Under the pieces are notes generated by a model, which was not told where the DNA came from, ran no database searches, and worked only from the letters and a program-made list of their open reading frames with translations. Below, piece by piece: positions 736 through 38,449 of a DNA stretch of 38,449 nt. The first letter of the stretch is position 1. Every line of letters starts with the position of its first letter. Position numbers and translations under genes: made by a program. Where the stretch lies: contig NW_025214919.1 in assembly GCF_004010195.1 (NCBI RefSeq), forward strand, positions 16,552 to 55,000, read 5' to 3'. The DNA comes from Chiloscyllium plagiosum (taxonomy: Eukaryota).

Positions 736-736
736 C

Positions 737-3379: not shown

Positions 3380-3380
3380 G

Positions 3381-10954: not shown

Positions 10955-11500
10955 GAATGACAAACTTGGATATGTGTGGCACTGTTTCAAAATTTGCAGA
11001 TGATGCAAAACTTGGAAGCAACATGAACTGTGGGGAGGCCAGCGATGTATCTGAAGAGATCACACACAAGCCGCTGGAACAAGAGAACAAGCAGCAGATA
11101 CACTTCACACCGAAAGTGATACATTTTGATAGGAAGAACGAGATACACCATAAACTAAAAGACACAATACTAAAGAGCAGAAACCTGGTGGCACGCAGAT
11201 AAGTCCCCAAACTGATGAAGGTAACAGGGCAGGTGGAAAAAGTGGTTAAAAGGCCATATGGCACCTGGGCATGATAAACAGAGGTATCACATACTAAAAG
11301 GGAGTTACTGTGAATCTATATCAGTTACTGACTGGGTCTTAGCATGAACCGTCTCTAACAATGGGGAGCACATTTTCATCAGAATTAGAAAGCTTCAGAC
11401 AGGATGTCGAAAGGTGTACGTGAATGGTTCCAGGTATGAAATAATTCGTTATGTGATAGATTGGAGGACCTGGGACTGTTCTCCTAAGAGAGAGAGAGGT
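10955..11500 (+). mobile_element. Old, heavily diverged CR1-type RT fragment
   Basis: Translation TVSKFADDAKLG (RT catalytic motif), then KVIHFDRKN. Colinear with 2470-3010 of the plus-strand CR1. Confidence 0.8.
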
Positions 11501-12143
11501 ATTGCTGGCATGCATTCAATGGTGGTGGGAGGTGGAATTGGTCTCATTCTGTGACGCTTATCTATTTACCTTTGAAAGAAATGTTCAAACGCATGTGGGA
11601 TTGGGACAGATGAGAGATATAGAAACTAGCCCTGCAGGGACAGGTATCAGGAAGCAGAGGCCACAGACCCAAACTAATGAGCAAACAAATCAAAACCGAC
11701 ATCAGGATACTCTTTTGGAAACTCCATGGAATTTGGGAATTGAGCCAGAAAAGACTCCATGGGCAGATTGTCCTGTTTCAGTGTGCAAATCCCCAAGTTA
11801 TGATCCTATTCAAAAATAAAACTAATACCTGTGGATGGTGGAAACGTACAACCTTCAGGACTTCACAGTGAGTTCAAACATTTTACAGCCTGAACACTTC
11901 TCCCCATGTCATTTACCCAAGAAATTATACCATAGGGAGCTTTCATATTGACACTCACTCGCCGTCCCCATGATCGCCCACTCGCGGTCCCCATGATCGC
12001 CCACTCGCCGTCCCCATGATCGTCCACTCGCAGTCTCCATTATCGCCCACTCGCCGTCCCCATGATCGCCCACTCGCCGTCCCCATGATCGTCCACTCGC
12101 AGTCCCCATTATCGCCCACTCGCCGTCCCCATGATCGCCCACT

Positions 12144-15100
12144 ACCCACTCGCAGTCCCCGTTAACACCCACTCGCAGTCCCCGTTATCACCCACTCGCA
12201 GTCCCCGTTAACACCCACTCGCAGTCCCCGTTAACACCCACTCGCAGTCCCCGTTAACACCCACTCGCAGTCCCCGTTAACACCCACTCGCAGTCCCCGT
12301 TAACACCCACTCGCAGTCCCCGTTAACACCCACTCGCAGTCCCCGTTAACACCCACTCGCAGTCCCCGTTAACACCCACTCGCAGTCCCCGTTAACACCC
12401 ACTCGCAGTCCCCGTTAACACCCACTCGCAGTCCCCGTTAACACCCACTCGCAGTCCCCGTTAACACCCACTCGCAGTCCCCGTTATCACCCACTCGCAG
12501 TCCCCGTTAACACCCACTCGCAGTCCCCGTTAACACCCACTCGCAGTCCCCGTTAACACCCACTCGCAGTCCCCGTTAACACCCACTCGCAGTCCCCGTT
12601 AACACCCACTCGCAGTCCCCGTTAACACCCACTCGCAGTCCCCGTTAACACCCACTCGCAGTCCCCGTTAACACCCACTCGCAGTCCCCGTTAACACCCA
12701 CTCGCAGTCCCCGTTAACACCCACTCGCAGTCCCCGTTAACACCCACTCGCAGTCCCCGTTAACACCCACTCGCAGTCCCCGTTATCACCCACTCGCAGT
12801 CCCCGTTAACACCCACTCGCAGTCCCCGTTAACACCCACTCGCAGTCCCCGTTAACACCCACTCGCAGTCCCCGTTAACACCCACTCGCAGTCCCCGTTA
12901 ACACCCACTCGCAGTCCCCGTTAACACCCACTCGCAGTCCCCGTTAACACCCACTCGCAGTCCCCGTTAACACCCACTCGCAGTCCCCGTTAACACCCAC
13001 TCGCAGTCCCCGTTAACACCCACTCGCAGTCCCCGTTAACACCCACTCGCAGTCCCCGTTAACACCCACTCGCAGTCCCCGTTATCACCCACTCGCAGTC
13101 CCCGTTAACACCCACTCGCAGTCCCCGTTAACACCCACTCGCAGTCCCCGTTAACACCCACTCGCAGTCCCCGTTAACACCCACTCGCAGTCCCCGTTAA
13201 CACCCACTCGCAGTCCCCGTTAACACCCACTCGCAGTCCCCGTTAACACCCACTCGCAGTCCCCGTTAACACCCACTCGCAGTCCCCGTTAACACCCACT
13301 CGCAGTCCCCGTTAACACCCACTCGCAGTCCCCGTTAACACCCACTCGCAGTCCCCGTTAACACCCACTCGCAGTCCCCGTTATCACCCACTCGCAGTCC
13401 CCGTTAACACCCACTCGCAGTCCCCGTTAACACCCACTCGCAGTCCCCGTTAACACCCACTCGCAGTCCCCGTTAACACCCACTCGCAGTCCCCGTTAAC
13501 ACCCACTCGCAGTCCCCGTTAACACCCACTCGCAGTCCCCGTTAACACCCACTCGCAGTCCCCGTTAACACCCACTCGCAGTCCCCGTTAACACCCACTC
13601 GCAGTCCCCGTTAACACCCACTCGCAGTCCCCGTTAACACCCACTCGCAGTCCCCGTTAACACCCACTCGCAGTCCCCGTTATCACCCACTCGCAGTCCC
13701 CGTTAACACCCACTCGCAGTCCCCGTTAACACCCACTCGCAGTCCCCGTTAACACCCACTCGCAGTCCCCGTTAACACCCACTCGCAGTCCCCGTTAACA
13801 CCCACTCGCAGTCCCCGTTAACACCCACTCGCAGTCCCCGTTAACACCCACTCGCAGTCCCCGTTAACACCCACTCGCAGTCCCCGTTAACACCCACTCG
13901 CAGTCCCCGTTAACACCCACTCGCAGTCCCCGTTAACACCCACTCGCAGTCCCCGTTAACACCCACTCGCAGTCCCCGTTATCACCCACTCGCAGTCCCC
14001 GTTAACACCCACTCGCAGTCCCCGTTAACACCCACTCGCAGTCCCCGTTAACACCCACTCGCAGTCCCCGTTAACACCCACTCGCAGTCCCCGTTAACAC
14101 CCACTCGCAGTCCCCGTTAACACCCACTCGCAGTCCCCGTTAACACCCACTCGCAGTCCCCGTTAACACCCACTCGCAGTCCCCGTTAACACCCACTCGC
14201 AGTCCCCGTTAACACCCACTCGCAGTCCCCGTTAACACCCACTCGCAGTCCCCGTTAACACCCACTCGCAGTCCCCGTTATCACCCACTCGCAGTCCCCG
14301 TTAACACCCACTCGCAGTCCCCGTTAACACCCACTCGCAGTCCCCGTTAACACCCACTCGCAGTCCCCGTTAACACCCACTCGCAGTCCCCGTTAACACC
14401 CACTCGCAGTCCCCGTTAACACCCACTCGCAGTCCCCGTTAACACCCACTCGCAGTCCCCGTTAACACCCACTCGCAGTCCCCGTTAACACCCACTCGCA
14501 GTCCCCGTTAACACCCACTCGCAGTCCCCGTTAACACCCACTCGCAGTCCCCGTTAACACCCACTCGCAGTCCCCGTTATCACCCACTCGCAGTCCCCGT
14601 TAACACCCACTCGCAGTCCCCGTTAACACCCACTCGCAGTCCCCGTTAACACCCACTCGCAGTCCCCGTTAACACCCACTCGCAGTCCCCGTTAACACCC
14701 ACTCGCAGTCCCCGTTAACACCCACTCGCAGTCCCCGTTAACACCCACTCGCAGTCCCCGTTAACACCCACTCGCAGTCCCCGTTAACACCCACTCGCAG
14801 TCCCCGTTAACACCCACTCGCAGTCCCCGTTAACACCCACTCGCAGTCCCCGTTAACACCCACTCGCAGTCCCCGTTATCACCCACTCGCAGTCCCCGTT
14901 AACACCCACTCGCAGTCCCCGTTAACACCCACTCGCAGTCCCCGTTAACACCCACTCGCAGTCCCCGTTAACACCCACTCGCAGTCCCCGTTAACACCCA
15001 CTCGCAGTCCCCGTTAACACCCACTCGCAGTCCCCGTTAACACCCACTCGCAGTCCCCGTTAACACCCACTCGCAGTCCCCGTTAACACCCACTCGCAGT

Positions 15101-18100
15101 CCCCGTTAACACCCACTCGCAGTCCCCGTTAACACCCACTCGCAGTCCCCGTTAACACCCACTCGCAGTCCCCGTTATCACCCACTCGCAGTCCCCGTTA
15201 ACACCCACTCGCAGTCCCCGTTAACACCCACTCGCAGTCCCCGTTAACACCCACTCGCAGTCCCCGTTAACACCCACTCGCAGTCCCCGTTAACACCCAC
15301 TCGCAGTCCCCGTTAACACCCACTCGCAGTCCCCGTTAACACCCACTCGCAGTCCCCGTTAACACCCACTCGCAGTCCCCGTTAACACCCACTCGCAGTC
15401 CCCGTTAACACCCACTCGCAGTCCCCGTTAACACCCACTCGCAGTCCCCGTTAACACCCACTCGCAGTCCCCGTTATCACCCACTCGCAGTCCCCGTTAA
15501 CACCCACTCGCAGTCCCCGTTAACACCCACTCGCAGTCCCCGTTAACACCCACTCGCAGTCCCCGTTAACACCCACTCGCAGTCCCCGTTAACACCCACT
15601 CGCAGTCCCCGTTAACACCCACTCGCAGTCCCCGTTAACACCCACTCGCAGTCCCCGTTAACACCCACTCGCAGTCCCCGTTAACACCCACTCGCAGTCC
15701 CCGTTAACACCCACTCGCAGTCCCCGTTAACACCCACTCGCAGTCCCCGTTAACACCCACTCGCAGTCCCCGTTATCACCCACTCGCAGTCCCCGTTAAC
15801 ACCCACTCGCAGTCCCCGTTAACACCCACTCGCAGTCCCCGTTAACACCCACTCGCAGTCCCCGTTAACACCCACTCGCAGTCCCCGTTAACACCCACTC
15901 GCAGTCCCCGTTAACACCCACTCGCAGTCCCCGTTAACACCCACTCGCAGTCCCCGTTAACACCCACTCGCAGTCCCCGTTAACACCCACTCGCAGTCCC
16001 CGTTAACACCCACTCGCAGTCCCCGTTAACACCCACTCGCAGTCCCCGTTAACACCCACTCGCAGTCCCCGTTATCACCCACTCGCAGTCCCCGTTAACA
16101 CCCACTCGCAGTCCCCGTTAACACCCACTCGCAGTCCCCGTTAACACCCACTCGCAGTCCCCGTTAACACCCACTCGCAGTCCCCGTTAACACCCACTCG
16201 CAGTCCCCGTTAACACCCACTCGCAGTCCCCGTTAACACCCACTCGCAGTCCCCGTTAACACCCACTCGCAGTCCCCGTTAACACCCACTCGCAGTCCCC
16301 GTTAACACCCACTCGCAGTCCCCGTTAACACCCACTCGCAGTCCCCGTTAACACCCACTCGCAGTCCCCGTTATCACCCACTCGCAGTCCCCGTTAACAC
16401 CCACTCGCAGTCCCCGTTAACACCCACTCGCAGTCCCCGTTAACACCCACTCGCAGTCCCCGTTAACACCCACTCGCAGTCCCCGTTAACACCCACTCGC
16501 AGTCCCCGTTAACACCCACTCGCAGTCCCCGTTAACACCCACTCGCAGTCCCCGTTAACACCCACTCGCAGTCCCCGTTAACACCCACTCGCAGTCCCCG
16601 TTAACACCCACTCGCAGTCCCCGTTAACACCCACTCGCAGTCCCCGTTAACACCCACTCGCAGTCCCCGTTATCACCCACTCGCAGTCCCCGTTAACACC
16701 CACTCGCAGTCCCCGTTAACACCCACTCGCAGTCCCCGTTAACACCCACTCGCAGTCCCCGTTAACACCCACTCGCAGTCCCCGTTAACACCCACTCGCA
16801 GTCCCCGTTAACACCCACTCGCAGTCCCCGTTAACACCCACTCGCAGTCCCCGTTAACACCCACTCGCAGTCCCCGTTAACACCCACTCGCAGTCCCCGT
16901 TAACACCCACTCGCAGTCCCCGTTAACACCCACTCGCAGTCCCCGTTAACACCCACTCGCAGTCCCCGTTATCACCCACTCGCAGTCCCCGTTAACACCC
17001 ACTCGCAGTCCCCGTTAACACCCACTCGCAGTCCCCGTTAACACCCACTCGCAGTCCCCGTTAACACCCACTCGCAGTCCCCGTTAACACCCACTCGCAG
17101 TCCCCGTTAACACCCACTCGCAGTCCCCGTTAACACCCACTCGCAGTCCCCGTTAACACCCACTCGCAGTCCCCGTTAACACCCACTCGCAGTCCCCGTT
17201 AACACCCACTCGCAGTCCCCGTTAACACCCACTCGCAGTCCCCGTTAACACCCACTCGCAGTCCCCGTTATCACCCACTCGCAGTCCCCGTTAACACCCA
17301 CTCGCAGTCCCCGTTAACACCCACTCGCAGTCCCCGTTAACACCCACTCGCAGTCCCCGTTAACACCCACTCGCAGTCCCCGTTAACACCCACTCGCAGT
17401 CCCCGTTAACACCCACTCGCAGTCCCCGTTAACACCCACTCGCAGTCCCCGTTAACACCCACTCGCAGTCCCCGTTAACACCCACTCGCAGTCCCCGTTA
17501 ACACCCACTCGCAGTCCCCGTTAACACCCACTCGCAGTCCCCGTTAACACCCACTCGCAGTCCCCGTTATCACCCACTCGCAGTCCCCGTTAACACCCAC
17601 TCGCAGTCCCCGTTAACACCCACTCGCAGTCCCCGTTAACACCCACTCGCAGTCCCCGTTAACACCCACTCGCAGTCCCCGTTAACACCCACTCGCAGTC
17701 CCCGTTAACACCCACTCGCAGTCCCCGTTAACACCCACTCGCAGTCCCCGTTAACACCCACTCGCAGTCCCCGTTAACACCCACTCGCAGTCCCCGTTAA
17801 CACCCACTCGCAGTCCCCGTTAACACCCACTCGCAGTCCCCGTTAACACCCACTCGCAGTCCCCGTTATCACCCACTCGCAGTCCCCGTTAACACCCACT
17901 CGCAGTCCCCGTTAACACCCACTCGCAGTCCCCGTTAACACCCACTCGCAGTCCCCGTTAACACCCACTCGCAGTCCCCGTTAACACCCACTCGCAGTCC
18001 CCGTTAACACCCACTCGCAGTCCCCGTTAACACCCACTCGCAGTCCCCGTTAACACCCACTCGCAGTCCCCGTTAACACCCACTCGCAGTCCCCGTTAAC

Positions 18101-21100
18101 ACCCACTCGCAGTCCCCGTTAACACCCACTCGCAGTCCCCGTTAACACCCACTCGCAGTCCCCGTTATCACCCACTCGCAGTCCCCGTTAACACCCACTC
18201 GCAGTCCCCGTTAACACCCACTCGCAGTCCCCGTTAACACCCACTCGCAGTCCCCGTTAACACCCACTCGCAGTCCCCGTTAACACCCACTCGCAGTCCC
18301 CGTTAACACCCACTCGCAGTCCCCGTTAACACCCACTCGCAGTCCCCGTTAACACCCACTCGCAGTCCCCGTTAACACCCACTCGCAGTCCCCGTTAACA
18401 CCCACTCGCAGTCCCCGTTAACACCCACTCGCAGTCCCCGTTAACACCCACTCGCAGTCCCCGTTATCACCCACTCGCAGTCCCCGTTAACACCCACTCG
18501 CAGTCCCCGTTAACACCCACTCGCAGTCCCCGTTAACACCCACTCGCAGTCCCCGTTAACACCCACTCGCAGTCCCCGTTAACACCCACTCGCAGTCCCC
18601 GTTAACACCCACTCGCAGTCCCCGTTAACACCCACTCGCAGTCCCCGTTAACACCCACTCGCAGTCCCCGTTAACACCCACTCGCAGTCCCCGTTAACAC
18701 CCACTCGCAGTCCCCGTTAACACCCACTCGCAGTCCCCGTTAACACCCACTCGCAGTCCCCGTTATCACCCACTCGCAGTCCCCGTTAACACCCACTCGC
18801 AGTCCCCGTTAACACCCACTCGCAGTCCCCGTTAACACCCACTCGCAGTCCCCGTTAACACCCACTCGCAGTCCCCGTTAACACCCACTCGCAGTCCCCG
18901 TTAACACCCACTCGCAGTCCCCGTTAACACCCACTCGCAGTCCCCGTTAACACCCACTCGCAGTCCCCGTTAACACCCACTCGCAGTCCCCGTTAACACC
19001 CACTCGCAGTCCCCGTTAACACCCACTCGCAGTCCCCGTTAACACCCACTCGCAGTCCCCGTTATCACCCACTCGCAGTCCCCGTTAACACCCACTCGCA
19101 GTCCCCGTTAACACCCACTCGCAGTCCCCGTTAACACCCACTCGCAGTCCCCGTTAACACCCACTCGCAGTCCCCGTTAACACCCACTCGCAGTCCCCGT
19201 TAACACCCACTCGCAGTCCCCGTTAACACCCACTCGCAGTCCCCGTTAACACCCACTCGCAGTCCCCGTTAACACCCACTCGCAGTCCCCGTTAACACCC
19301 ACTCGCAGTCCCCGTTAACACCCACTCGCAGTCCCCGTTAACACCCACTCGCAGTCCCCGTTATCACCCACTCGCAGTCCCCGTTAACACCCACTCGCAG
19401 TCCCCGTTAACACCCACTCGCAGTCCCCGTTAACACCCACTCGCAGTCCCCGTTAACACCCACTCGCAGTCCCCGTTAACACCCACTCGCAGTCCCCGTT
19501 AACACCCACTCGCAGTCCCCGTTAACACCCACTCGCAGTCCCCGTTAACACCCACTCGCAGTCCCCGTTAACACCCACTCGCAGTCCCCGTTAACACCCA
19601 CTCGCAGTCCCCGTTAACACCCACTCGCAGTCCCCGTTAACACCCACTCGCAGTCCCCGTTATCACCCACTCGCAGTCCCCGTTAACACCCACTCGCAGT
19701 CCCCGTTAACACCCACTCGCAGTCCCCGTTAACACCCACTCGCAGTCCCCGTTAACACCCACTCGCAGTCCCCGTTAACACCCACTCGCAGTCCCCGTTA
19801 ACACCCACTCGCAGTCCCCGTTAACACCCACTCGCAGTCCCCGTTAACACCCACTCGCAGTCCCCGTTAACACCCACTCGCAGTCCCCGTTAACACCCAC
19901 TCGCAGTCCCCGTTAACACCCACTCGCAGTCCCCGTTAACACCCACTCGCAGTCCCCGTTATCACCCACTCGCAGTCCCCGTTAACACCCACTCGCAGTC
20001 CCCGTTAACACCCACTCGCAGTCCCCGTTAACACCCACTCGCAGTCCCCGTTAACACCCACTCGCAGTCCCCGTTAACACCCACTCGCAGTCCCCGTTAA
20101 CACCCACTCGCAGTCCCCGTTAACACCCACTCGCAGTCCCCGTTAACACCCACTCGCAGTCCCCGTTAACACCCACTCGCAGTCCCCGTTAACACCCACT
20201 CGCAGTCCCCGTTAACACCCACTCGCAGTCCCCGTTAACACCCACTCGCAGTCCCCGTTATCACCCACTCGCAGTCCCCGTTAACACCCACTCGCAGTCC
20301 CCGTTAACACCCACTCGCAGTCCCCGTTAACACCCACTCGCAGTCCCCGTTAACACCCACTCGCAGTCCCCGTTAACACCCACTCGCAGTCCCCGTTAAC
20401 ACCCACTCGCAGTCCCCGTTAACACCCACTCGCAGTCCCCGTTAACACCCACTCGCAGTCCCCGTTAACACCCACTCGCAGTCCCCGTTAACACCCACTC
20501 GCAGTCCCCGTTAACACCCACTCGCAGTCCCCGTTAACACCCACTCGCAGTCCCCGTTATCACCCACTCGCAGTCCCCGTTAACACCCACTCGCAGTCCC
20601 CGTTAACACCCACTCGCAGTCCCCGTTAACACCCACTCGCAGTCCCCGTTAACACCCACTCGCAGTCCCCGTTAACACCCACTCGCAGTCCCCGTTAACA
20701 CCCACTCGCAGTCCCCGTTAACACCCACTCGCAGTCCCCGTTAACACCCACTCGCAGTCCCCGTTAACACCCACTCGCAGTCCCCGTTAACACCCACTCG
20801 CAGTCCCCGTTAACACCCACTCGCAGTCCCCGTTAACACCCACTCGCAGTCCCCGTTATCACCCACTCGCAGTCCCCGTTAACACCCACTCGCAGTCCCC
20901 GTTAACACCCACTCGCAGTCCCCGTTAACACCCACTCGCAGTCCCCGTTAACACCCACTCGCAGTCCCCGTTAACACCCACTCGCAGTCCCCGTTAACAC
21001 CCACTCGCAGTCCCCGTTAACACCCACTCGCAGTCCCCGTTAACACCCACTCGCAGTCCCCGTTAACACCCACTCGCAGTCCCCGTTAACACCCACTCGC

Positions 21101-24100
21101 AGTCCCCGTTAACACCCACTCGCAGTCCCCGTTAACACCCACTCGCAGTCCCCGTTATCACCCACTCGCAGTCCCCGTTAACACCCACTCGCAGTCCCCG
21201 TTAACACCCACTCGCAGTCCCCGTTAACACCCACTCGCAGTCCCCGTTAACACCCACTCGCAGTCCCCGTTAACACCCACTCGCAGTCCCCGTTAACACC
21301 CACTCGCAGTCCCCGTTAACACCCACTCGCAGTCCCCGTTAACACCCACTCGCAGTCCCCGTTAACACCCACTCGCAGTCCCCGTTAACACCCACTCGCA
21401 GTCCCCGTTAACACCCACTCGCAGTCCCCGTTAACACCCACTCGCAGTCCCCGTTATCACCCACTCGCAGTCCCCGTTAACACCCACTCGCAGTCCCCGT
21501 TAACACCCACTCGCAGTCCCCGTTAACACCCACTCGCAGTCCCCGTTAACACCCACTCGCAGTCCCCGTTAACACCCACTCGCAGTCCCCGTTAACACCC
21601 ACTCGCAGTCCCCGTTAACACCCACTCGCAGTCCCCGTTAACACCCACTCGCAGTCCCCGTTAACACCCACTCGCAGTCCCCGTTAACACCCACTCGCAG
21701 TCCCCGTTAACACCCACTCGCAGTCCCCGTTAACACCCACTCGCAGTCCCCGTTATCACCCACTCGCAGTCCCCGTTAACACCCACTCGCAGTCCCCGTT
21801 AACACCCACTCGCAGTCCCCGTTAACACCCACTCGCAGTCCCCGTTAACACCCACTCGCAGTCCCCGTTAACACCCACTCGCAGTCCCCGTTAACACCCA
21901 CTCGCAGTCCCCGTTAACACCCACTCGCAGTCCCCGTTAACACCCACTCGCAGTCCCCGTTAACACCCACTCGCAGTCCCCGTTAACACCCACTCGCAGT
22001 CCCCGTTAACACCCACTCGCAGTCCCCGTTAACACCCACTCGCAGTCCCCGTTATCACCCACTCGCAGTCCCCGTTAACACCCACTCGCAGTCCCCGTTA
22101 ACACCCACTCGCAGTCCCCGTTAACACCCACTCGCAGTCCCCGTTAACACCCACTCGCAGTCCCCGTTAACACCCACTCGCAGTCCCCGTTAACACCCAC
22201 TCGCAGTCCCCGTTAACACCCACTCGCAGTCCCCGTTAACACCCACTCGCAGTCCCCGTTAACACCCACTCGCAGTCCCCGTTAACACCCACTCGCAGTC
22301 CCCGTTAACACCCACTCGCAGTCCCCGTTAACACCCACTCGCAGTCCCCGTTATCACCCACTCGCAGTCCCCGTTAACACCCACTCGCAGTCCCCGTTAA
22401 CACCCACTCGCAGTCCCCGTTAACACCCACTCGCAGTCCCCGTTAACACCCACTCGCAGTCCCCGTTAACACCCACTCGCAGTCCCCGTTAACACCCACT
22501 CGCAGTCCCCGTTAACACCCACTCGCAGTCCCCGTTAACACCCACTCGCAGTCCCCGTTAACACCCACTCGCAGTCCCCGTTAACACCCACTCGCAGTCC
22601 CCGTTAACACCCACTCGCAGTCCCCGTTAACACCCACTCGCAGTCCCCGTTATCACCCACTCGCAGTCCCCGTTAACACCCACTCGCAGTCCCCGTTAAC
22701 ACCCACTCGCAGTCCCCGTTAACACCCACTCGCAGTCCCCGTTAACACCCACTCGCAGTCCCCGTTAACACCCACTCGCAGTCCCCGTTAACACCCACTC
22801 GCAGTCCCCGTTAACACCCACTCGCAGTCCCCGTTAACACCCACTCGCAGTCCCCGTTAACACCCACTCGCAGTCCCCGTTAACACCCACTCGCAGTCCC
22901 CGTTAACACCCACTCGCAGTCCCCGTTAACACCCACTCGCAGTCCCCGTTATCACCCACTCGCAGTCCCCGTTAACACCCACTCGCAGTCCCCGTTAACA
23001 CCCACTCGCAGTCCCCGTTAACACCCACTCGCAGTCCCCGTTAACACCCACTCGCAGTCCCCGTTAACACCCACTCGCAGTCCCCGTTAACACCCACTCG
23101 CAGTCCCCGTTAACACCCACTCGCAGTCCCCGTTAACACCCACTCGCAGTCCCCGTTAACACCCACTCGCAGTCCCCGTTAACACCCACTCGCAGTCCCC
23201 GTTAACACCCACTCGCAGTCCCCGTTAACACCCACTCGCAGTCCCCGTTATCACCCACTCGCAGTCCCCGTTAACACCCACTCGCAGTCCCCGTTAACAC
23301 CCACTCGCAGTCCCCGTTAACACCCACTCGCAGTCCCCGTTAACACCCACTCGCAGTCCCCGTTAACACCCACTCGCAGTCCCCGTTAACACCCACTCGC
23401 AGTCCCCGTTAACACCCACTCGCAGTCCCCGTTAACACCCACTCGCAGTCCCCGTTAACACCCACTCGCAGTCCCCGTTAACACCCACTCGCAGTCCCCG
23501 TTAACACCCACTCGCAGTCCCCGTTAACACCCACTCGCAGTCCCCGTTATCACCCACTCGCAGTCCCCGTTAACACCCACTCGCAGTCCCCGTTAACACC
23601 CACTCGCAGTCCCCGTTAACACCCACTCGCAGTCCCCGTTAACACCCACTCGCAGTCCCCGTTAACACCCACTCGCAGTCCCCGTTAACACCCACTCGCA
23701 GTCCCCGTTAACACCCACTCGCAGTCCCCGTTAACACCCACTCGCAGTCCCCGTTAACACCCACTCGCAGTCCCCGTTAACACCCACTCGCAGTCCCCGT
23801 TAACACCCACTCGCAGTCCCCGTTAACACCCACTCGCAGTCCCCGTTATCACCCACTCGCAGTCCCCGTTAACACCCACTCGCAGTCCCCGTTAACACCC
23901 ACTCGCAGTCCCCGTTAACACCCACTCGCAGTCCCCGTTAACACCCACTCGCAGTCCCCGTTAACACCCACTCGCAGTCCCCGTTAACACCCACTCGCAG
24001 TCCCCGTTAACACCCACTCGCAGTCCCCGTTAACACCCACTCGCAGTCCCCGTTAACACCCACTCGCAGTCCCCGTTAACACCCACTCGCAGTCCCCGTT

Positions 24101-27100
24101 AACACCCACTCGCAGTCCCCGTTAACACCCACTCGCAGTCCCCGTTATCACCCACTCGCAGTCCCCGTTAACACCCACTCGCAGTCCCCGTTAACACCCA
24201 CTCGCAGTCCCCGTTAACACCCACTCGCAGTCCCCGTTAACACCCACTCGCAGTCCCCGTTAACACCCACTCGCAGTCCCCGTTAACACCCACTCGCAGT
24301 CCCCGTTAACACCCACTCGCAGTCCCCGTTAACACCCACTCGCAGTCCCCGTTAACACCCACTCGCAGTCCCCGTTAACACCCACTCGCAGTCCCCGTTA
24401 ACACCCACTCGCAGTCCCCGTTAACACCCACTCGCAGTCCCCGTTATCACCCACTCGCAGTCCCCGTTAACACCCACTCGCAGTCCCCGTTAACACCCAC
24501 TCGCAGTCCCCGTTAACACCCACTCGCAGTCCCCGTTAACACCCACTCGCAGTCCCCGTTAACACCCACTCGCAGTCCCCGTTAACACCCACTCGCAGTC
24601 CCCGTTAACACCCACTCGCAGTCCCCGTTAACACCCACTCGCAGTCCCCGTTAACACCCACTCGCAGTCCCCGTTAACACCCACTCGCAGTCCCCGTTAA
24701 CACCCACTCGCAGTCCCCGTTAACACCCACTCGCAGTCCCCGTTATCACCCACTCGCAGTCCCCGTTAACACCCACTCGCAGTCCCCGTTAACACCCACT
24801 CGCAGTCCCCGTTAACACCCACTCGCAGTCCCCGTTAACACCCACTCGCAGTCCCCGTTAACACCCACTCGCAGTCCCCGTTAACACCCACTCGCAGTCC
24901 CCGTTAACACCCACTCGCAGTCCCCGTTAACACCCACTCGCAGTCCCCGTTAACACCCACTCGCAGTCCCCGTTAACACCCACTCGCAGTCCCCGTTAAC
25001 ACCCACTCGCAGTCCCCGTTAACACCCACTCGCAGTCCCCGTTATCACCCACTCGCAGTCCCCGTTAACACCCACTCGCAGTCCCCGTTAACACCCACTC
25101 GCAGTCCCCGTTAACACCCACTCGCAGTCCCCGTTAACACCCACTCGCAGTCCCCGTTAACACCCACTCGCAGTCCCCGTTAACACCCACTCGCAGTCCC
25201 CGTTAACACCCACTCGCAGTCCCCGTTAACACCCACTCGCAGTCCCCGTTAACACCCACTCGCAGTCCCCGTTAACACCCACTCGCAGTCCCCGTTAACA
25301 CCCACTCGCAGTCCCCGTTAACACCCACTCGCAGTCCCCGTTATCACCCACTCGCAGTCCCCGTTAACACCCACTCGCAGTCCCCGTTAACACCCACTCG
25401 CAGTCCCCGTTAACACCCACTCGCAGTCCCCGTTAACACCCACTCGCAGTCCCCGTTAACACCCACTCGCAGTCCCCGTTAACACCCACTCGCAGTCCCC
25501 GTTAACACCCACTCGCAGTCCCCGTTAACACCCACTCGCAGTCCCCGTTAACACCCACTCGCAGTCCCCGTTAACACCCACTCGCAGTCCCCGTTAACAC
25601 CCACTCGCAGTCCCCGTTAACACCCACTCGCAGTCCCCGTTATCACCCACTCGCAGTCCCCGTTAACACCCACTCGCAGTCCCCGTTAACACCCACTCGC
25701 AGTCCCCGTTAACACCCACTCGCAGTCCCCGTTAACACCCACTCGCAGTCCCCGTTAACACCCACTCGCAGTCCCCGTTAACACCCACTCGCAGTCCCCG
25801 TTAACACCCACTCGCAGTCCCCGTTAACACCCACTCGCAGTCCCCGTTAACACCCACTCGCAGTCCCCGTTAACACCCACTCGCAGTCCCCGTTAACACC
25901 CACTCGCAGTCCCCGTTAACACCCACTCGCAGTCCCCGTTATCACCCACTCGCAGTCCCCGTTAACACCCACTCGCAGTCCCCGTTAACACCCACTCGCA
26001 GTCCCCGTTAACACCCACTCGCAGTCCCCGTTAACACCCACTCGCAGTCCCCGTTAACACCCACTCGCAGTCCCCGTTAACACCCACTCGCAGTCCCCGT
26101 TAACACCCACTCGCAGTCCCCGTTAACACCCACTCGCAGTCCCCGTTAACACCCACTCGCAGTCCCCGTTAACACCCACTCGCAGTCCCCGTTAACACCC
26201 ACTCGCAGTCCCCGTTAACACCCACTCGCAGTCCCCGTTATCACCCACTCGCAGTCCCCGTTAACACCCACTCGCAGTCCCCGTTAACACCCACTCGCAG
26301 TCCCCGTTAACACCCACTCGCAGTCCCCGTTAACACCCACTCGCAGTCCCCGTTAACACCCACTCGCAGTCCCCGTTAACACCCACTCGCAGTCCCCGTT
26401 AACACCCACTCGCAGTCCCCGTTAACACCCACTCGCAGTCCCCGTTAACACCCACTCGCAGTCCCCGTTAACACCCACTCGCAGTCCCCGTTAACACCCA
26501 CTCGCAGTCCCCGTTAACACCCACTCGCAGTCCCCGTTATCACCCACTCGCAGTCCCCGTTAACACCCACTCGCAGTCCCCGTTAACACCCACTCGCAGT
26601 CCCCGTTAACACCCACTCGCAGTCCCCGTTAACACCCACTCGCAGTCCCCGTTAACACCCACTCGCAGTCCCCGTTAACACCCACTCGCAGTCCCCGTTA
26701 ACACCCACTCGCAGTCCCCGTTAACACCCACTCGCAGTCCCCGTTAACACCCACTCGCAGTCCCCGTTAACACCCACTCGCAGTCCCCGTTAACACCCAC
26801 TCGCAGTCCCCGTTAACACCCACTCGCAGTCCCCGTTATCACCCACTCGCAGTCCCCGTTAACACCCACTCGCAGTCCCCGTTAACACCCACTCGCAGTC
26901 CCCGTTAACACCCACTCGCAGTCCCCGTTAACACCCACTCGCAGTCCCCGTTAACACCCACTCGCAGTCCCCGTTAACACCCACTCGCAGTCCCCGTTAA
27001 CACCCACTCGCAGTCCCCGTTAACACCCACTCGCAGTCCCCGTTAACACCCACTCGCAGTCCCCGTTAACACCCACTCGCAGTCCCCGTTAACACCCACT

Positions 27101-30100
27101 CGCAGTCCCCGTTAACACCCACTCGCAGTCCCCGTTATCACCCACTCGCAGTCCCCGTTAACACCCACTCGCAGTCCCCGTTAACACCCACTCGCAGTCC
27201 CCGTTAACACCCACTCGCAGTCCCCGTTAACACCCACTCGCAGTCCCCGTTAACACCCACTCGCAGTCCCCGTTAACACCCACTCGCAGTCCCCGTTAAC
27301 ACCCACTCGCAGTCCCCGTTAACACCCACTCGCAGTCCCCGTTAACACCCACTCGCAGTCCCCGTTAACACCCACTCGCAGTCCCCGTTAACACCCACTC
27401 GCAGTCCCCGTTAACACCCACTCGCAGTCCCCGTTATCACCCACTCGCAGTCCCCGTTAACACCCACTCGCAGTCCCCGTTAACACCCACTCGCAGTCCC
27501 CGTTAACACCCACTCGCAGTCCCCGTTAACACCCACTCGCAGTCCCCGTTAACACCCACTCGCAGTCCCCGTTAACACCCACTCGCAGTCCCCGTTAACA
27601 CCCACTCGCAGTCCCCGTTAACACCCACTCGCAGTCCCCGTTAACACCCACTCGCAGTCCCCGTTAACACCCACTCGCAGTCCCCGTTAACACCCACTCG
27701 CAGTCCCCGTTAACACCCACTCGCAGTCCCCGTTATCACCCACTCGCAGTCCCCGTTAACACCCACTCGCAGTCCCCGTTAACACCCACTCGCAGTCCCC
27801 GTTAACACCCACTCGCAGTCCCCGTTAACACCCACTCGCAGTCCCCGTTAACACCCACTCGCAGTCCCCGTTAACACCCACTCGCAGTCCCCGTTAACAC
27901 CCACTCGCAGTCCCCGTTAACACCCACTCGCAGTCCCCGTTAACACCCACTCGCAGTCCCCGTTAACACCCACTCGCAGTCCCCGTTAACACCCACTCGC
28001 AGTCCCCGTTAACACCCACTCGCAGTCCCCGTTATCACCCACTCGCAGTCCCCGTTAACACCCACTCGCAGTCCCCGTTAACACCCACTCGCAGTCCCCG
28101 TTAACACCCACTCGCAGTCCCCGTTAACACCCACTCGCAGTCCCCGTTAACACCCACTCGCAGTCCCCGTTAACACCCACTCGCAGTCCCCGTTAACACC
28201 CACTCGCAGTCCCCGTTAACACCCACTCGCAGTCCCCGTTAACACCCACTCGCAGTCCCCGTTAACACCCACTCGCAGTCCCCGTTAACACCCACTCGCA
28301 GTCCCCGTTAACACCCACTCGCAGTCCCCGTTATCACCCACTCGCAGTCCCCGTTAACACCCACTCGCAGTCCCCGTTAACACCCACTCGCAGTCCCCGT
28401 TAACACCCACTCGCAGTCCCCGTTAACACCCACTCGCAGTCCCCGTTAACACCCACTCGCAGTCCCCGTTAACACCCACTCGCAGTCCCCGTTAACACCC
28501 ACTCGCAGTCCCCGTTAACACCCACTCGCAGTCCCCGTTAACACCCACTCGCAGTCCCCGTTAACACCCACTCGCAGTCCCCGTTAACACCCACTCGCAG
28601 TCCCCGTTAACACCCACTCGCAGTCCCCGTTATCACCCACTCGCAGTCCCCGTTAACACCCACTCGCAGTCCCCGTTAACACCCACTCGCAGTCCCCGTT
28701 AACACCCACTCGCAGTCCCCGTTAACACCCACTCGCAGTCCCCGTTAACACCCACTCGCAGTCCCCGTTAACACCCACTCGCAGTCCCCGTTAACACCCA
28801 CTCGCAGTCCCCGTTAACACCCACTCGCAGTCCCCGTTAACACCCACTCGCAGTCCCCGTTAACACCCACTCGCAGTCCCCGTTAACACCCACTCGCAGT
28901 CCCCGTTAACACCCACTCGCAGTCCCCGTTATCACCCACTCGCAGTCCCCGTTAACACCCACTCGCAGTCCCCGTTAACACCCACTCGCAGTCCCCGTTA
29001 ACACCCACTCGCAGTCCCCGTTAACACCCACTCGCAGTCCCCGTTAACACCCACTCGCAGTCCCCGTTAACACCCACTCGCAGTCCCCGTTAACACCCAC
29101 TCGCAGTCCCCGTTAACACCCACTCGCAGTCCCCGTTAACACCCACTCGCAGTCCCCGTTAACACCCACTCGCAGTCCCCGTTAACACCCACTCGCAGTC
29201 CCCGTTAACACCCACTCGCAGTCCCCGTTATCACCCACTCGCAGTCCCCGTTAACACCCACTCGCAGTCCCCGTTAACACCCACTCGCAGTCCCCGTTAA
29301 CACCCACTCGCAGTCCCCGTTAACACCCACTCGCAGTCCCCGTTAACACCCACTCGCAGTCCCCGTTAACACCCACTCGCAGTCCCCGTTAACACCCACT
29401 CGCAGTCCCCGTTAACACCCACTCGCAGTCCCCGTTAACACCCACTCGCAGTCCCCGTTAACACCCACTCGCAGTCCCCGTTAACACCCACTCGCAGTCC
29501 CCGTTAACACCCACTCGCAGTCCCCGTTATCACCCACTCGCAGTCCCCGTTAACACCCACTCGCAGTCCCCGTTAACACCCACTCGCAGTCCCCGTTAAC
29601 ACCCACTCGCAGTCCCCGTTAACACCCACTCGCAGTCCCCGTTAACACCCACTCGCAGTCCCCGTTAACACCCACTCGCAGTCCCCGTTAACACCCACTC
29701 GCAGTCCCCGTTAACACCCACTCGCAGTCCCCGTTAACACCCACTCGCAGTCCCCGTTAACACCCACTCGCAGTCCCCGTTAACACCCACTCGCAGTCCC
29801 CGTTAACACCCACTCGCAGTCCCCGTTATCACCCACTCGCAGTCCCCGTTAACACCCACTCGCAGTCCCCGTTAACACCCACTCGCAGTCCCCGTTAACA
29901 CCCACTCGCAGTCCCCGTTAACACCCACTCGCAGTCCCCGTTAACACCCACTCGCAGTCCCCGTTAACACCCACTCGCAGTCCCCGTTAACACCCACTCG
30001 CAGTCCCCGTTAACACCCACTCGCAGTCCCCGTTAACACCCACTCGCAGTCCCCGTTAACACCCACTCGCAGTCCCCGTTAACACCCACTCGCAGTCCCC

Positions 30101-33100
30101 GTTAACACCCACTCGCAGTCCCCGTTATCACCCACTCGCAGTCCCCGTTAACACCCACTCGCAGTCCCCGTTAACACCCACTCGCAGTCCCCGTTAACAC
30201 CCACTCGCAGTCCCCGTTAACACCCACTCGCAGTCCCCGTTAACACCCACTCGCAGTCCCCGTTAACACCCACTCGCAGTCCCCGTTAACACCCACTCGC
30301 AGTCCCCGTTAACACCCACTCGCAGTCCCCGTTAACACCCACTCGCAGTCCCCGTTAACACCCACTCGCAGTCCCCGTTAACACCCACTCGCAGTCCCCG
30401 TTAACACCCACTCGCAGTCCCCGTTATCACCCACTCGCAGTCCCCGTTAACACCCACTCGCAGTCCCCGTTAACACCCACTCGCAGTCCCCGTTAACACC
30501 CACTCGCAGTCCCCGTTAACACCCACTCGCAGTCCCCGTTAACACCCACTCGCAGTCCCCGTTAACACCCACTCGCAGTCCCCGTTAACACCCACTCGCA
30601 GTCCCCGTTAACACCCACTCGCAGTCCCCGTTAACACCCACTCGCAGTCCCCGTTAACACCCACTCGCAGTCCCCGTTAACACCCACTCGCAGTCCCCGT
30701 TAACACCCACTCGCAGTCCCCGTTATCACCCACTCGCAGTCCCCGTTAACACCCACTCGCAGTCCCCGTTAACACCCACTCGCAGTCCCCGTTAACACCC
30801 ACTCGCAGTCCCCGTTAACACCCACTCGCAGTCCCCGTTAACACCCACTCGCAGTCCCCGTTAACACCCACTCGCAGTCCCCGTTAACACCCACTCGCAG
30901 TCCCCGTTAACACCCACTCGCAGTCCCCGTTAACACCCACTCGCAGTCCCCGTTAACACCCACTCGCAGTCCCCGTTAACACCCACTCGCAGTCCCCGTT
31001 AACACCCACTCGCAGTCCCCGTTATCACCCACTCGCAGTCCCCGTTAACACCCACTCGCAGTCCCCGTTAACACCCACTCGCAGTCCCCGTTAACACCCA
31101 CTCGCAGTCCCCGTTAACACCCACTCGCAGTCCCCGTTAACACCCACTCGCAGTCCCCGTTAACACCCACTCGCAGTCCCCGTTAACACCCACTCGCAGT
31201 CCCCGTTAACACCCACTCGCAGTCCCCGTTAACACCCACTCGCAGTCCCCGTTAACACCCACTCGCAGTCCCCGTTAACACCCACTCGCAGTCCCCGTTA
31301 ACACCCACTCGCAGTCCCCGTTATCACCCACTCGCAGTCCCCGTTAACACCCACTCGCAGTCCCCGTTAACACCCACTCGCAGTCCCCGTTAACACCCAC
31401 TCGCAGTCCCCGTTAACACCCACTCGCAGTCCCCGTTAACACCCACTCGCAGTCCCCGTTAACACCCACTCGCAGTCCCCGTTAACACCCACTCGCAGTC
31501 CCCGTTAACACCCACTCGCAGTCCCCGTTAACACCCACTCGCAGTCCCCGTTAACACCCACTCGCAGTCCCCGTTAACACCCACTCGCAGTCCCCGTTAA
31601 CACCCACTCGCAGTCCCCGTTATCACCCACTCGCAGTCCCCGTTAACACCCACTCGCAGTCCCCGTTAACACCCACTCGCAGTCCCCGTTAACACCCACT
31701 CGCAGTCCCCGTTAACACCCACTCGCAGTCCCCGTTAACACCCACTCGCAGTCCCCGTTAACACCCACTCGCAGTCCCCGTTAACACCCACTCGCAGTCC
31801 CCGTTAACACCCACTCGCAGTCCCCGTTAACACCCACTCGCAGTCCCCGTTAACACCCACTCGCAGTCCCCGTTAACACCCACTCGCAGTCCCCGTTAAC
31901 ACCCACTCGCAGTCCCCGTTATCACCCACTCGCAGTCCCCGTTAACACCCACTCGCAGTCCCCGTTAACACCCACTCGCAGTCCCCGTTAACACCCACTC
32001 GCAGTCCCCGTTAACACCCACTCGCAGTCCCCGTTAACACCCACTCGCAGTCCCCGTTAACACCCACTCGCAGTCCCCGTTAACACCCACTCGCAGTCCC
32101 CGTTAACACCCACTCGCAGTCCCCGTTAACACCCACTCGCAGTCCCCGTTAACACCCACTCGCAGTCCCCGTTAACACCCACTCGCAGTCCCCGTTAACA
32201 CCCACTCGCAGTCCCCGTTATCACCCACTCGCAGTCCCCGTTAACACCCACTCGCAGTCCCCGTTAACACCCACTCGCAGTCCCCGTTAACACCCACTCG
32301 CAGTCCCCGTTAACACCCACTCGCAGTCCCCGTTAACACCCACTCGCAGTCCCCGTTAACACCCACTCGCAGTCCCCGTTAACACCCACTCGCAGTCCCC
32401 GTTAACACCCACTCGCAGTCCCCGTTAACACCCACTCGCAGTCCCCGTTAACACCCACTCGCAGTCCCCGTTAACACCCACTCGCAGTCCCCGTTAACAC
32501 CCACTCGCAGTCCCCGTTATCACCCACTCGCAGTCCCCGTTAACACCCACTCGCAGTCCCCGTTAACACCCACTCGCAGTCCCCGTTAACACCCACTCGC
32601 AGTCCCCGTTAACACCCACTCGCAGTCCCCGTTAACACCCACTCGCAGTCCCCGTTAACACCCACTCGCAGTCCCCGTTAACACCCACTCGCAGTCCCCG
32701 TTAACACCCACTCGCAGTCCCCGTTAACACCCACTCGCAGTCCCCGTTAACACCCACTCGCAGTCCCCGTTAACACCCACTCGCAGTCCCCGTTAACACC
32801 CACTCGCAGTCCCCGTTATCACCCACTCGCAGTCCCCGTTAACACCCACTCGCAGTCCCCGTTAACACCCACTCGCAGTCCCCGTTAACACCCACTCGCA
32901 GTCCCCGTTAACACCCACTCGCAGTCCCCGTTAACACCCACTCGCAGTCCCCGTTAACACCCACTCGCAGTCCCCGTTAACACCCACTCGCAGTCCCCGT
33001 TAACACCCACTCGCAGTCCCCGTTAACACCCACTCGCAGTCCCCGTTAACACCCACTCGCAGTCCCCGTTAACACCCACTCGCAGTCCCCGTTAACACCC

Positions 33101-35211
33101 ACTCGCAGTCCCCGTTATCACCCACTCGCAGTCCCCGTTAACACCCACTCGCAGTCCCCGTTAACACCCACTCGCAGTCCCCGTTAACACCCACTCGCAG
33201 TCCCCGTTAACACCCACTCGCAGTCCCCGTTAACACCCACTCGCAGTCCCCGTTAACACCCACTCGCAGTCCCCGTTAACACCCACTCGCAGTCCCCGTT
33301 AACACCCACTCGCAGTCCCCGTTAACACCCACTCGCAGTCCCCGTTAACACCCACTCGCAGTCCCCGTTAACACCCACTCGCAGTCCCCGTTAACACCCA
33401 CTCGCAGTCCCCGTTATCACCCACTCGCAGTCCCCGTTAACACCCACTCGCAGTCCCCGTTAACACCCACTCGCAGTCCCCGTTAACACCCACTCGCAGT
33501 CCCCGTTAACACCCACTCGCAGTCCCCGTTAACACCCACTCGCAGTCCCCGTTAACACCCACTCGCAGTCCCCGTTAACACCCACTCGCAGTCCCCGTTA
33601 ACACCCACTCGCAGTCCCCGTTAACACCCACTCGCAGTCCCCGTTAACACCCACTCGCAGTCCCCGTTAACACCCACTCGCAGTCCCCGTTAACACCCAC
33701 TCGCAGTCCCCGTTATCACCCACTCGCAGTCCCCGTTAACACCCACTCGCAGTCCCCGTTAACACCCACTCGCAGTCCCCGTTAACACCCACTCGCAGTC
33801 CCCGTTAACACCCACTCGCAGTCCCCGTTAACACCCACTCGCAGTCCCCGTTAACACCCACTCGCAGTCCCCGTTAACACCCACTCGCAGTCCCCGTTAA
33901 CACCCACTCGCAGTCCCCGTTAACACCCACTCGCAGTCCCCGTTAACACCCACTCGCAGTCCCCGTTAACACCCACTCGCAGTCCCCGTTAACACCCACT
34001 CGCAGTCCCCGTTATCACCCACTCGCAGTCCCCGTTAACACCCACTCGCAGTCCCCGTTAACACCCACTCGCAGTCCCCGTTAACACCCACTCGCAGTCC
34101 CCGTTAACACCCACTCGCAGTCCCCGTTAACACCCACTCGCAGTCCCCGTTAACACCCACTCGCAGTCCCCGTTAACACCCACTCGCAGTCCCCGTTAAC
34201 ACCCACTCGCAGTCCCCGTTAACACCCACTCGCAGTCCCCGTTAACACCCACTCGCAGTCCCCGTTAACACCCACTCGCAGTCCCCGTTAACACCCACTC
34301 GCAGTCCCCGTTATCACCCACTCGCAGTCCCCGTTAACACCCACTCGCAGTCCCCGTTAACACCCACTCGCAGTCCCCGTTAACACCCACTCGCAGTCCC
34401 CGTTAACACCCACTCGCAGTCCCCGTTAACACCCACTCGCAGTCCCCGTTAACACCCACTCGCAGTCCCCGTTAACACCCACTCGCAGTCCCCGTTAACA
34501 CCCACTCGCAGTCCCCGTTAACACCCACTCGCAGTCCCCGTTAACACCCACTCGCAGTCCCCGTTAACACCCACTCGCAGTCCCCGTTAACACCCACTCG
34601 CAGTCCCCGTTATCACCCACTCGCAGTCCCCGTTAACACCCACTCGCAGTCCCCGTTAACACCCACTCGCAGTCCCCGTTAACACCCACTCGCAGTCCCC
34701 GTTAACACCCACTCGCAGTCCCCGTTAACACCCACTCGCAGTCCCCGTTAACACCCACTCGCAGTCCCCGTTAACACCCACTCGCAGTCCCCGTTAACAC
34801 CCACTCGCAGTCCCCGTTAACACCCACTCGCAGTCCCCGTTAACACCCACTCGCAGTCCCCGTTAACACCCACTCGCAGTCCCCGTTAACACCCACTCGC
34901 AGTCCCCGTTATCACCCACTCGCAGTCCCCGTTAACACCCACTCGCAGTCCCCGTTAACACCCACTCGCAGTCCCCGTTAACACCCACTCGCAGTCCCCG
35001 TTAACACCCACTCGCAGTCCCCGTTAACACCCACTCGCAGTCCCCGTTAACACCCACTCGCAGTCCCCGTTAACACCCACTCGCAGTCCCCGTTAACACC
35101 CACTCGCAGTCCCCGTTAACACCCACTCGCAGTCCCCGTTAACACCCACTCGCAGTCCCCGTTAACACCCACTCGCAGTCCCCGTTAACACCCACTCGCA
35201 GTCCCCGTTAT
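12144..35211. repeat. 299-bp higher-order repeat (12 GTTAAC monomers + 1 GTTATC monomer), 77 periods
   Basis: Variant T at 12188, 12487, 12786 ... 14879 ... 24148 ... 35211. (35211-12188)/299 = 77 exactly. No other substitutions or indels were noticed. Confidence 0.93.
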
Positions 35212-35671
35212 CACCCACTCGCAGTCCCCGTTAACACCCACTCGCAGTCCCCGTTATCACCCACTCGCAGTCCCCGTTAACACCCACTCGCAGTCCCCGT
35301 TATCACCCACTCGCAGTCCCCGTTAACACCCACTCGCAGTCCCCGTTATCACCCACTCGCAGTCCCCGTTAACACCCACTCGCAGTCCCCGTTATCACCC
35401 ACTCGCAGTCCCCGTTAACACCCACTCGCAGTCCCCGTTATCACCCACTCGCAGTCCCCGTTAACACCCACTCGCAGTCCCCGTTATCACCCACTCGCAG
35501 TCCCCGTTAACACCCACTCGCAGTCCCCGTTATCACCCACTCGCAGTCCCCGTTAACACCCACTCGCAGTCCCCGTTATCACCCACTCGCAGTCCCCGTT
35601 AACACCCACTCGCAGTCCCCGTTATCACCCACTCGCAGTCCCCGTTAACACCCACTCGCAGTCCCCGTTAT
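35211..35671. repeat. 46-bp dimer block (alternating GTTAAC / GTTATC monomers), 10 periods
   Basis: Variant T at 35211, 35257, 35303, 35349, 35395, 35441, 35487, 35533, 35579, 35625 and 35671. Confidence 0.92.
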
Positions 35672-37073
35672 CACCCACTCGCAGTCCCCGTTAACACCCA
35701 CTCGCAGTCCCCGTTAACACCCACTCGCAGTCCCCGTTAACACCCACTCGCAGTCCCCGTTAACACCCACTCGCAATCCCCGTTAACACCCACTCGCAGT
35801 CCCATTAACACCCACTCGCAGTCTCCATTATCGCCCACTCGCAGTCCCCGTTAACACTCACTCGCAGTCCCCGTTATCACCCACTCGCAGTCCCCGTTAA
35901 CACCCACTCGCAGTCCCCGTTATCACCCACTCGCAGTACCCGTTATCGCCCACTCGCAGTACCCGTTATCACTCACTCGCAGTCCCCGTTATCACCCACT
36001 CGCAGTCCCCGTTAACACCCACTCGCAGTCCCCGTTATCACCCACTCGCAGTCCCCGTTAACACCCACTCGCAGTCCCCGTTATCACCCACTCGCAGTCC
36101 CCGTTAACACCCACTCGCAGTACCCGTTATCGCCCACTCGCAGTCTCCGTTATCGCCCACTCGCAGTCCCAGTTAACATCCACTCGCAATCCCCGTTAAC
36201 ATCCACTCGCAGTCCCCATTATCGTCCACTCACAATCCCCGTTAACGCCCACTCGCAATCCCCGTTAACGCCCACTTGCAATCCCCGTTATCGCCCACTC
36301 GCAGTCCCCGTTATCACCCACTCGCAGTCCCCGTTAACACCCACTCGCAATCCCCATTATCGCCCACTCGCAGTCCCCATTATCGTCCACTCGCAATCCC
36401 CGTTAACACCCACTCGCAATCCCCATTATCGCCCACTCGCAGTCCCCATTATCGTCCACTCACAATCCCCGTTAACACCCACTCGCAATCCCCGTTATCG
36501 CCCACTCGCAGTCCCCATTATCGTCCACTCGCAGTCCCCATTATCGTCCACTCGCAATCCCCATTAACGCCCACTCGCAGTCCCCGTTAACGCCCACTCG
36601 CAGACCCCGTTAACGCCCACTCGTCGTCCCCTTTAACATGCATTCGCCATCCCCATTAACACACACTCGCCATCTCCATTAACACCCACTCGCCATCTCC
36701 ATTAACACCCACTCGCCGTCCGCATTATCGCCCACTCGCCGTCCCCGTTAAAACCCACTCGCAGTCCCCGTTATCACCCACTCGCCGTCCCAGTTAACAC
36801 CCACTCGCCTTCCCCATTATCCCCCACTCGCCGTCCCAGTTAACACCCACTCGCCTTCCCCATTACCGCCCACTCGCCGTCCCCATTATCGCCCTCTCGC
36901 CGTCCCCATTATCGCCCTCTCGCCGTCCCCATTAACACTCACTCGCCGTCCCCATTAACACCGACTCGCTGTCCCCGTTAACACGCATTCGCCGTCCCCA
37001 TTATCGCCCGCTCGCCGTCCCCGTGAACACGTATTCGCCGTCCCCGTTATCGCCCACTCACCGTCACCATTAT

Positions 37074-37653
37074 CGCCCACTCGCCGTCCCCATTATCGCC
37101 CACTCGCCGTCCCCATTATCGCCCACTCGCCGTCCCCATTATCGCCCACTCGCCGTCCCCATTATCGCCCACTCGCCGTCCCCATTATCGCCCACTCGCC
37201 GTCCCCATTATCGCCCACTCGCCGTCCCCATTATCGCCCACTCGCCGTCCCCATTATCGCCCACTCGCCGTCCCCATTATCGCCCACTCGCCGTCCCCAT
37301 TATCGCCCACTCGCCGTCCCCATTATCGCCCACTCGCCGTCCCCATTATCGCCCACTCGCCGTCCCCATTATCGCCCACTCGCCGTCCCCATTATCGCCC
37401 ACTCGCCGTCCCCATTATCGCCCACTCGCCGTCCCCATTATCGCCCACTCGCCGTCCCCATTATCGCCCACTCGCCGTCCCCATTATCGCCCACTCGCCG
37501 TCCCCATTATCGCCCACTCGCCGTCCCCATTATCGCCCACTCGCCGTCCCCATTATCGCCCACTCGCCGTCCCCATTATCGCCCACTCGCCGTCCCCATT
37601 ATCGCCCACTCGCCGTCCCCATTATCGCCCACTCGCCGTCCCCATTATCGCCC
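37074..37653. repeat. Homogeneous block of a second monomer type, CGCCCACTCGCCGTCCCCATTAT, about 25 copies, running into the gap
   Basis: Perfect 23-bp repeats that differ from the core monomer at 4 positions. Confidence 0.93.
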
Positions 37654-38063
37654 NNNNNNNNNNNNNNNNNNNNNNNNNNNNNNNNNNNNNNNNNNNNNNN
37701 NNNNNNNNNNNNNNNNNNNNNNNNNNNNNNNNNNNNNNNNNNNNNNNNNNNNNNNNNNNNNNNNNNNNNNNNNNNNNNNNNNNNNNNNNNNNNNNNNNNN
37801 NNNNNNNNNNNNNNNNNNNNNNNNNNNNNNNNNNNNNNNNNNNNNNNNNNNNNNNNNNNNNNNNNNNNNNNNNNNNNNNNNNNNNNNNNNNNNNNNNNNN
37901 NNNNNNNNNNNNNNNNNNNNNNNNNNNNNNNNNNNNNNNNNNNNNNNNNNNNNNNNNNNNNNNNNNNNNNNNNNNNNNNNNNNNNNNNNNNNNNNNNNNN
38001 NNNNNNNNNNNNNNNNNNNNNNNNNNNNNNNNNNNNNNNNNNNNNNNNNNNNNNNNNNNNNNN
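37654..38063. other. Assembly gap (410 N) inside the satellite array
   Basis: Run of N, with array monomers on both sides. Confidence 0.99.
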
Positions 38064-38263
38064 CTCGCAGTCCCCGTTAACACCCACTCGCCGTCCCCGT
38101 TAACACCCACTCGCGTTCCCCATTATCACCCACTCGCGTTCCCCATTATCACCCACTCGCCGTCCCCATTAACACCCACTCGCCGTCCCCATTAACACCC
38201 ACTCACCGTCCCCATTATCACCCACTCACCGTCCCCATTATCACCCACTCACCGTCCCCATTA

Positions 38264-38449
38264 CCATCTACCTGGCTTCTCTTCTTCCCGATCTTACTAA
38301 CAACATTCACTATGTTCACCTACTTTGTCTCTCTCTCTGAGCTCTGTCTCCACTATTGGCTCACTCTTCACCCCTACCCTCATCCCCATCATCACGATAA
38401 ATACTACATTTTTCCCATTGCTGTCAGTTCTGAAGAAGGGTCACTGAAC
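38264..38449 (+). mobile_element. Probable Penelope-like element terminal (pLTR) region, with the start of a minimal hammerhead ribozyme, cut by the window end
   Basis: C/T-rich tract followed by CAGTT-CTGAAGA-AGGGTCACTGAAC. CUGANGA core at 38430-38436. Family assignment is from recalled similarity to fish PLE termini, not from a search. Confidence 0.55.

Follow-up and report, generated by a model that had tools for sequence, protein, structure and literature searches.

The window, a stretch of 38,449 nucleotides from Chiloscyllium plagiosum (contig NW_025214919.1), contains a 23-bp tandem array that enters from near-unique DNA on the left and returns to non-repetitive DNA on the right. The layout is summarized in Table 1, in which A, B and C denote monomer types.

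Table 1. Features of the 23-bp array and its flanks, in window positions.
Feature	Position	Strand	Description
Left flank, near-unique	9000..11950	-	Probably transcribed, 3' UTR-like, enters the minisatellite; baseline for depth
Minisatellite left edge	11951..12143		8.4 diverged 23-bp monomers, broken off mid-unit
Seam	12143..12144		Phase break (16 missing bases) with a switch of monomer type
Perfect block	12144..35256		A B, then (A12 B) x 77; period 299, 0 mismatches
A/B mixture	35211..35762		Run of (A B) x 10, then A x 4
Variant repeats	35763..37066		About 56 diverged, interspersed monomers, 42 of them distinct; ordinary minisatellite type
Second perfect run	37067..37653		Monomer C x 25.5, abutting the gap
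Gap	37654..38063		410 N, not in register with the 23-base monomer (410 mod 23 = 19)
Minisatellite right edge	38064..38263		8.7 diverged monomers, then non-repetitive DNA

Pieces that we take to be decayed LINE-like and SINE-like elements occur on both strands at about 250–8900, 10950–11480, 11800–11870 and 38380–38449, and the window opens (1–172) with a diverged 27-bp tandem repeat of 6.4 copies, with alternating types and a 53-bp period. A search of positions 1–12500 against Rfam returned no matches, and none of six flank ORF pieces picked from 21 ORFs matched Pfam. Within the array, the longest stop-free stretch is 45 codons on the plus strand and 22 on the minus strand, giving no sign of a coding role.

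Words from the flank (8900–11950) were sought in sequencing runs and recovered in 18 of 21, at a fraction of 0.94–0.98 in organism A and 0.28–0.48 in organism B. The range of 0.94–0.98 of the flank words applies to eight small or large runs of organism A that do not belong to the study that was flagged. Four of the 21 runs, none from organism B, were compared with the window: X19 and X20 as raw reads, and X1 and X5 as contigs. The X1 contig set had been flagged as a possible source of the assembly. Both X1 and X5 contigs differ from the window at position 10690, and X1 differs also at 11964; these differences may represent other alleles or consensus errors.

An X5 contig of 3,017 bases (depth 34.5) matches positions 10143–12016 from its letter 1144 onwards and, since the aligned part begins that far in, its start is placed near position 9000. 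A minus-strand AATAAA is found at 9049–9054, with the contig start about 50 bases beyond. From its small size (86 Mb) X5 would be RNA, its run label reading "DNA?". The minisatellite may be contained in a minus-strand transcript, or form its beginning, with the coding part located outside the window. On the minus strand of 12144–37653, each monomer carries one G4 tract, one G3 tract and two CpG dinucleotides, so that two monomers together provide a G-quadruplex motif.

The preliminary description of this DNA reported a single variant monomer at every 13th unit between 12188 and 35211, and this observation is exact in the assembled text. The motif GTTATC occurs at 12184 + 299k with all 77 spacings equal to 299, and the distance between the first and last variant base is 23,023 bp, or 77 x 299 and 1001 x 23. 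The exact stretch is a little longer than described since it continues to 35256: when the window is compared with itself at a lag of 299, positions 12144–35256 match over 23,113 bases with no mismatches, while a lag of 23 gives 6–8 mismatches per kb. Monomers A and B are one base apart, and the 77 copies of the unit are without any variant. TCACC, which we take to be the HphI site, was expected to share the period and is present 78 times in the block at a spacing of 299. Chance is ruled out as the origin of the exact period. The further remark that no other change was noticed is accurate for the block; left unmentioned were the seam, the (A B) x 10 run, the diverged monomers, the run of monomer C and the gap.

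The perfect block begins exactly at the seam. Contigs from X1 and X5 cross from the flank into the left edge, reaching 11994 and 12016, respectively, and raw reads that reach 12144 continue in the phase of the array. No contig bridging the seam was found among the 16 of 99 contig pieces listed. Since 12075–12143 has zero coverage in both raw runs, the missing seam reads are weak evidence. At the far end, the phase of the N run makes it unlikely to be in-phase masking of the array.

Outside the block, the array has the properties of a minisatellite, or VNTR: a unit within 10–100 bp, a length of a few kb, interspersed variants and a junction with unique flanking DNA. GC-rich vertebrate minisatellites carry interspersed variant repeats that are normally irregular, and this part of the locus resembles them in its 23-bp unit, its 61% G+C, its mixture of variants and its diverged edges. 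To our knowledge, such loci do not typically keep a strict 13-unit period over 23 kb. The block itself was proposed to be a very young higher-order repeat (HOR) arising from one burst of amplification. In the assembly it does consist of a multi-monomer unit in tandem, with units more alike than their monomers. Where an HOR would show several diagnostic monomer types and some copy-to-copy variation, the block has two types and zero variants.

The raw reads bear directly on this proposal. X19 and X20 are two of the three raw runs listed for the species, all of which are short-read Illumina data; they comprise 12.9 million x 150 each and come from samples other than the assembled individual. Reads and contigs were placed on positions 10143–12212, a target that ends three monomers (A B A) inside the block. 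At the variant site, 12188, the base A typical of monomer A was observed in 9 of 27 reads (4 of 13 in X19 and 5 of 14 in X20) and the base T of monomer B in the other 18. A real block predicts 139, 116 or 83 A-reads for a genome of 3.0, 3.6 or 5 Gb, respectively, and 51 when calculated from the flank depth; nine or fewer would then be seen with a probability no higher than 5e-13. When the noise of a flank baseline of roughly six reads is taken into account, this probability rises to 0.002 if the block is homozygous and to 0.04 if one haplotype carries it. This baseline was calculated without the X19 bin 10971–11039, in which the three reads continue into other sequence. The flank depth of 0.24 is about half of the expected 0.54, and the filter used in read placement discards reads unnoticed.

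The proportion of the two monomers disagrees with the block as well. In a simulated placement, performed with an ungapped rule of our own that differs from the actual placement program, all 299 of the block read starts were placed on the target and 70% showed A at 12188. The observed share of 9 in 27, compared with the expected 0.70, has a binomial probability of 8e-5. A ratio of variant to standard monomers near 1:12 had been anticipated for the reads; instead, B exceeds A by 18 to 9. Expressed as the share of B at this site, simulation gave about 85% for 35211–36150 and 30% for the block, and 67% was observed. The reads thus resemble the (A B) x 10 mixture more than the block.

Some of the reads carry changes that are foreign to the block, namely T at 12169 (8 of 28), A at 12192 (6 of 28; 1 of 14 in X19 and 5 of 14 in X20) and a 66-base step (three reads). 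Since neither 12169T nor 12192A is present in the block, many of the reads would come from mixed alleles or from other loci; no read spans the array. The upper bound on block-like DNA derived from the reads is 2.8–7.7 kb, and all 28 raw reads together correspond to 3–9 kb of A/B-like DNA, to which other loci may contribute. As A and B are one base apart, any sequencing bias that disfavors the repeat would be expected to affect both.

Contig depths were examined in X1 by simulating a k=31 graph of the window, with the depth set to the 6.4 of the flank, and placing its unitigs back; contig depth is not equal to copy number, and the X1 and X5 figures are to be read accordingly. Over 12144–12212, the observed depth was 461, compared with 16,365 for a window with the block, 502 without it and 673 with one cycle. 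The summed depth at 12169 was 616 (about 31,400 with the block, 750 without it and 1,070 with one cycle), and that of A at 12188 was 176 (11,488, 32 and 102, respectively). Over 12144–12212 and at 12169, X1 is therefore within about 10–20% of a block-free window. The bin 12006–12074 fits less well (293 observed, 110 simulated). While X1 may contain one or two cycles' worth of additional A-run, it does not contain 77, and the assembled copy number of the block disagrees with this run about 35-fold.

Saturation cannot account for the low depth because the abundance cap is 50,000 in the available text of the Logan preprint. Contig pieces of about 31–34 bases were placed elsewhere in the target stretch, so short unitigs of high depth are unlikely to have been missed. 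In X5, the depth for pure-A words was 268; had the transcript contained the block, about 31,000 would be expected. Contigs of 53 bases on 12144–12195 had depths of 32.5 in X1 and 15.9 in X5. They match a cycle of pure A or pure B equally well, their geometry rather than their letters being known, and as a result only the summed depths were used. The run of monomer C at 37067–37653 is possibly another unrolled loop. In X1, one contig whose geometry matches a pure C cycle has a depth of 8.1 compared with 6.4 for the flank, whereas C occurs about 24 times in the window; known by its geometry alone, this contig is suggestive of inflation of the second run.

With copy number and monomer ratio both at odds with the raw data, the block is not classed as an HOR. 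Read counts and contig depths favor the artefactual origin that had been raised as the alternative. The period is exact, the block starts at a seam, another perfect run and a gap follow, and four runs are short of A-type DNA. Together these observations make it very probable that the 77 x 299 block is an artefact, produced when an assembler or gap filler copied out a single 299-bp loop 77 times, and that the underlying locus is a real minisatellite of a few kb with mixed 23-bp monomers. The block is present in the file and most likely absent from the animal. As a counterpoint, X1 is only a possible source of the assembly and the raw runs represent other samples.

Such an artefact might have arisen as follows. 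A minisatellite of a few kb with mixed 23-bp monomers would defeat assembly. One segment of at least 300 bases with A-B-A at both ends, such as a merged read pair, a super-read, a unitig or a consensus segment, could then overlap itself; alternatively, a graph of long words could close on itself. The 299-base loop of one B and twelve A would be walked until a length or step limit was reached, and the resulting piece, 12144–37653, would be joined out of phase to the left contig. Duplicates among the 299 words of the unit disappear only when k reaches 276, and the longest run of pure A outside the block is four monomers. Since the loop needs k of at least 276, either the source data held a longer A-run or a step with long context invented it.

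Several specific routes were considered and rejected. A plain de Bruijn loop at the usual k (31–200) does not produce the unit, which is an unbranched cycle only for k of at least 276. The remaining mechanism would be a long-context step. That 1001 monomers might reflect a 1000-step limit, or that 299 is the multiple of 23 nearest to 300, were set aside as numerical coincidences. In the available portion of the Supernova description (PMC5411770), a traversing path plus 10 Ns is substituted for a cycle in the graph, and gaps from read pairs are written as 100 N. Such text resembles the block in that a cycle path is followed by Ns, leaving a perfect period beside a gap. The Supernova 1.1 source, as far as supplement file 8 of the same paper presents it, uses an edge at most twice. 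The limit of two copies per edge (MAX_COPIES = 2) plus 10 Ns differs from the 77 turns, the absence of N at the seam and the 410 N at the far end, and the cycle routine of version 1.1 was rejected as the direct cause. Arithmetically, 410 N equals 400 + 10, the latter being the number of Ns that a Supernova path adds, next to the 100 N of its pair gaps. A literature search for a convention of 400-N gaps gave nothing useful.

Two explanations retain more of the assembled sequence. According to the first, the assembled individual carries, on one haplotype or in a somatic clone, a private and very recent expansion to about 77 copies of the 299-bp unit by rolling-circle reinsertion or serial slippage; the 16-base phase break would be the scar of insertion, and the four samples would lack the allele. 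Real DNA would supply directly the context of at least 276 bases that the period needs, and zero changes in 23 kb are expected if divergence is below about 1e-4. For a hemizygous block, the test goes no lower than P = 0.04 once the noise of the flank is included, and it concerns other individuals. Identical multi-monomer blocks on short units do exist, as in the five blocks of five telomeric units described for Arabidopsis in the accessible part of PMC11406999; however, the blocks given there have 5–8 copies, not 77. The expansion is also absent from all four runs from four samples, including the possible source X1, the adjoining real monomers are strongly mixed, and the piece 12144–37653 ends with another perfect run, next to an N gap. 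We consider this expansion quite improbable, and equally doubtful that one individual carries a base-perfect 23-kb HOR in a state before mutation, created by a single burst inside a transcribed, G-quadruplex-forming minisatellite.

The second explanation, which we regard as the least probable, is that the array is truly tens of kb long and irregular, with its G-rich strand under-sequenced, so that the length is real and the period false. The period would then come from consensus building or from tiling a noisy long read with one short segment of high accuracy. The G-quadruplex motif on the G-rich strand is consistent with such a loss, as are the low depth of the flank and the filter that discards reads, and the 410-N gap indicates that the array was not closed. 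Satellites can show coverage bias that is specific to the sequencing technology, as documented in the T2T preprint to the extent available. Against this, a dropout of about 35-fold would be needed that coincides by chance with the block-free value to which the X1 depth fits, and the A/B-like DNA in the 28 raw reads amounts to 3–9 kb. An assembly-inflated minisatellite remains the preferred explanation.

Known HORs provide a further comparison. Primate alpha-satellite is composed of strongly diverged 171-bp monomers in megabase arrays, and its HORs share with the block a multi-monomer unit arranged head to tail. In the accessible part of the T2T preprint, their copy numbers agree with Illumina depth, whereas that of the block disagrees about 35-fold in X1. 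The variant telomeric HORs of Arabidopsis thaliana, to judge from the available text of PMC11406999, are the nearest real case in the literature examined. They are built from short monomers in repeated, sometimes identical, multi-unit blocks and adjoin homogenised runs of monomers, as here. They differ in having several unit types and few copies, while the block has a single one-base difference and no read support. Neither the locus nor this particular artefact turned up in a search of titles and abstract openings.

If the private expansion were nonetheless true, an HOR would have been born in one step from a minisatellite by a mechanism that can be tested. As an assembly artefact, the block serves as a caution that software can introduce a flawless higher-order period into an assembly; about 60% of this 38-kb window appears to be such text. 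A cheap screen is available for other loci: zero noise, a seam out of phase, a perfect run at a gap, and a word depth far below the assembled number of copies.
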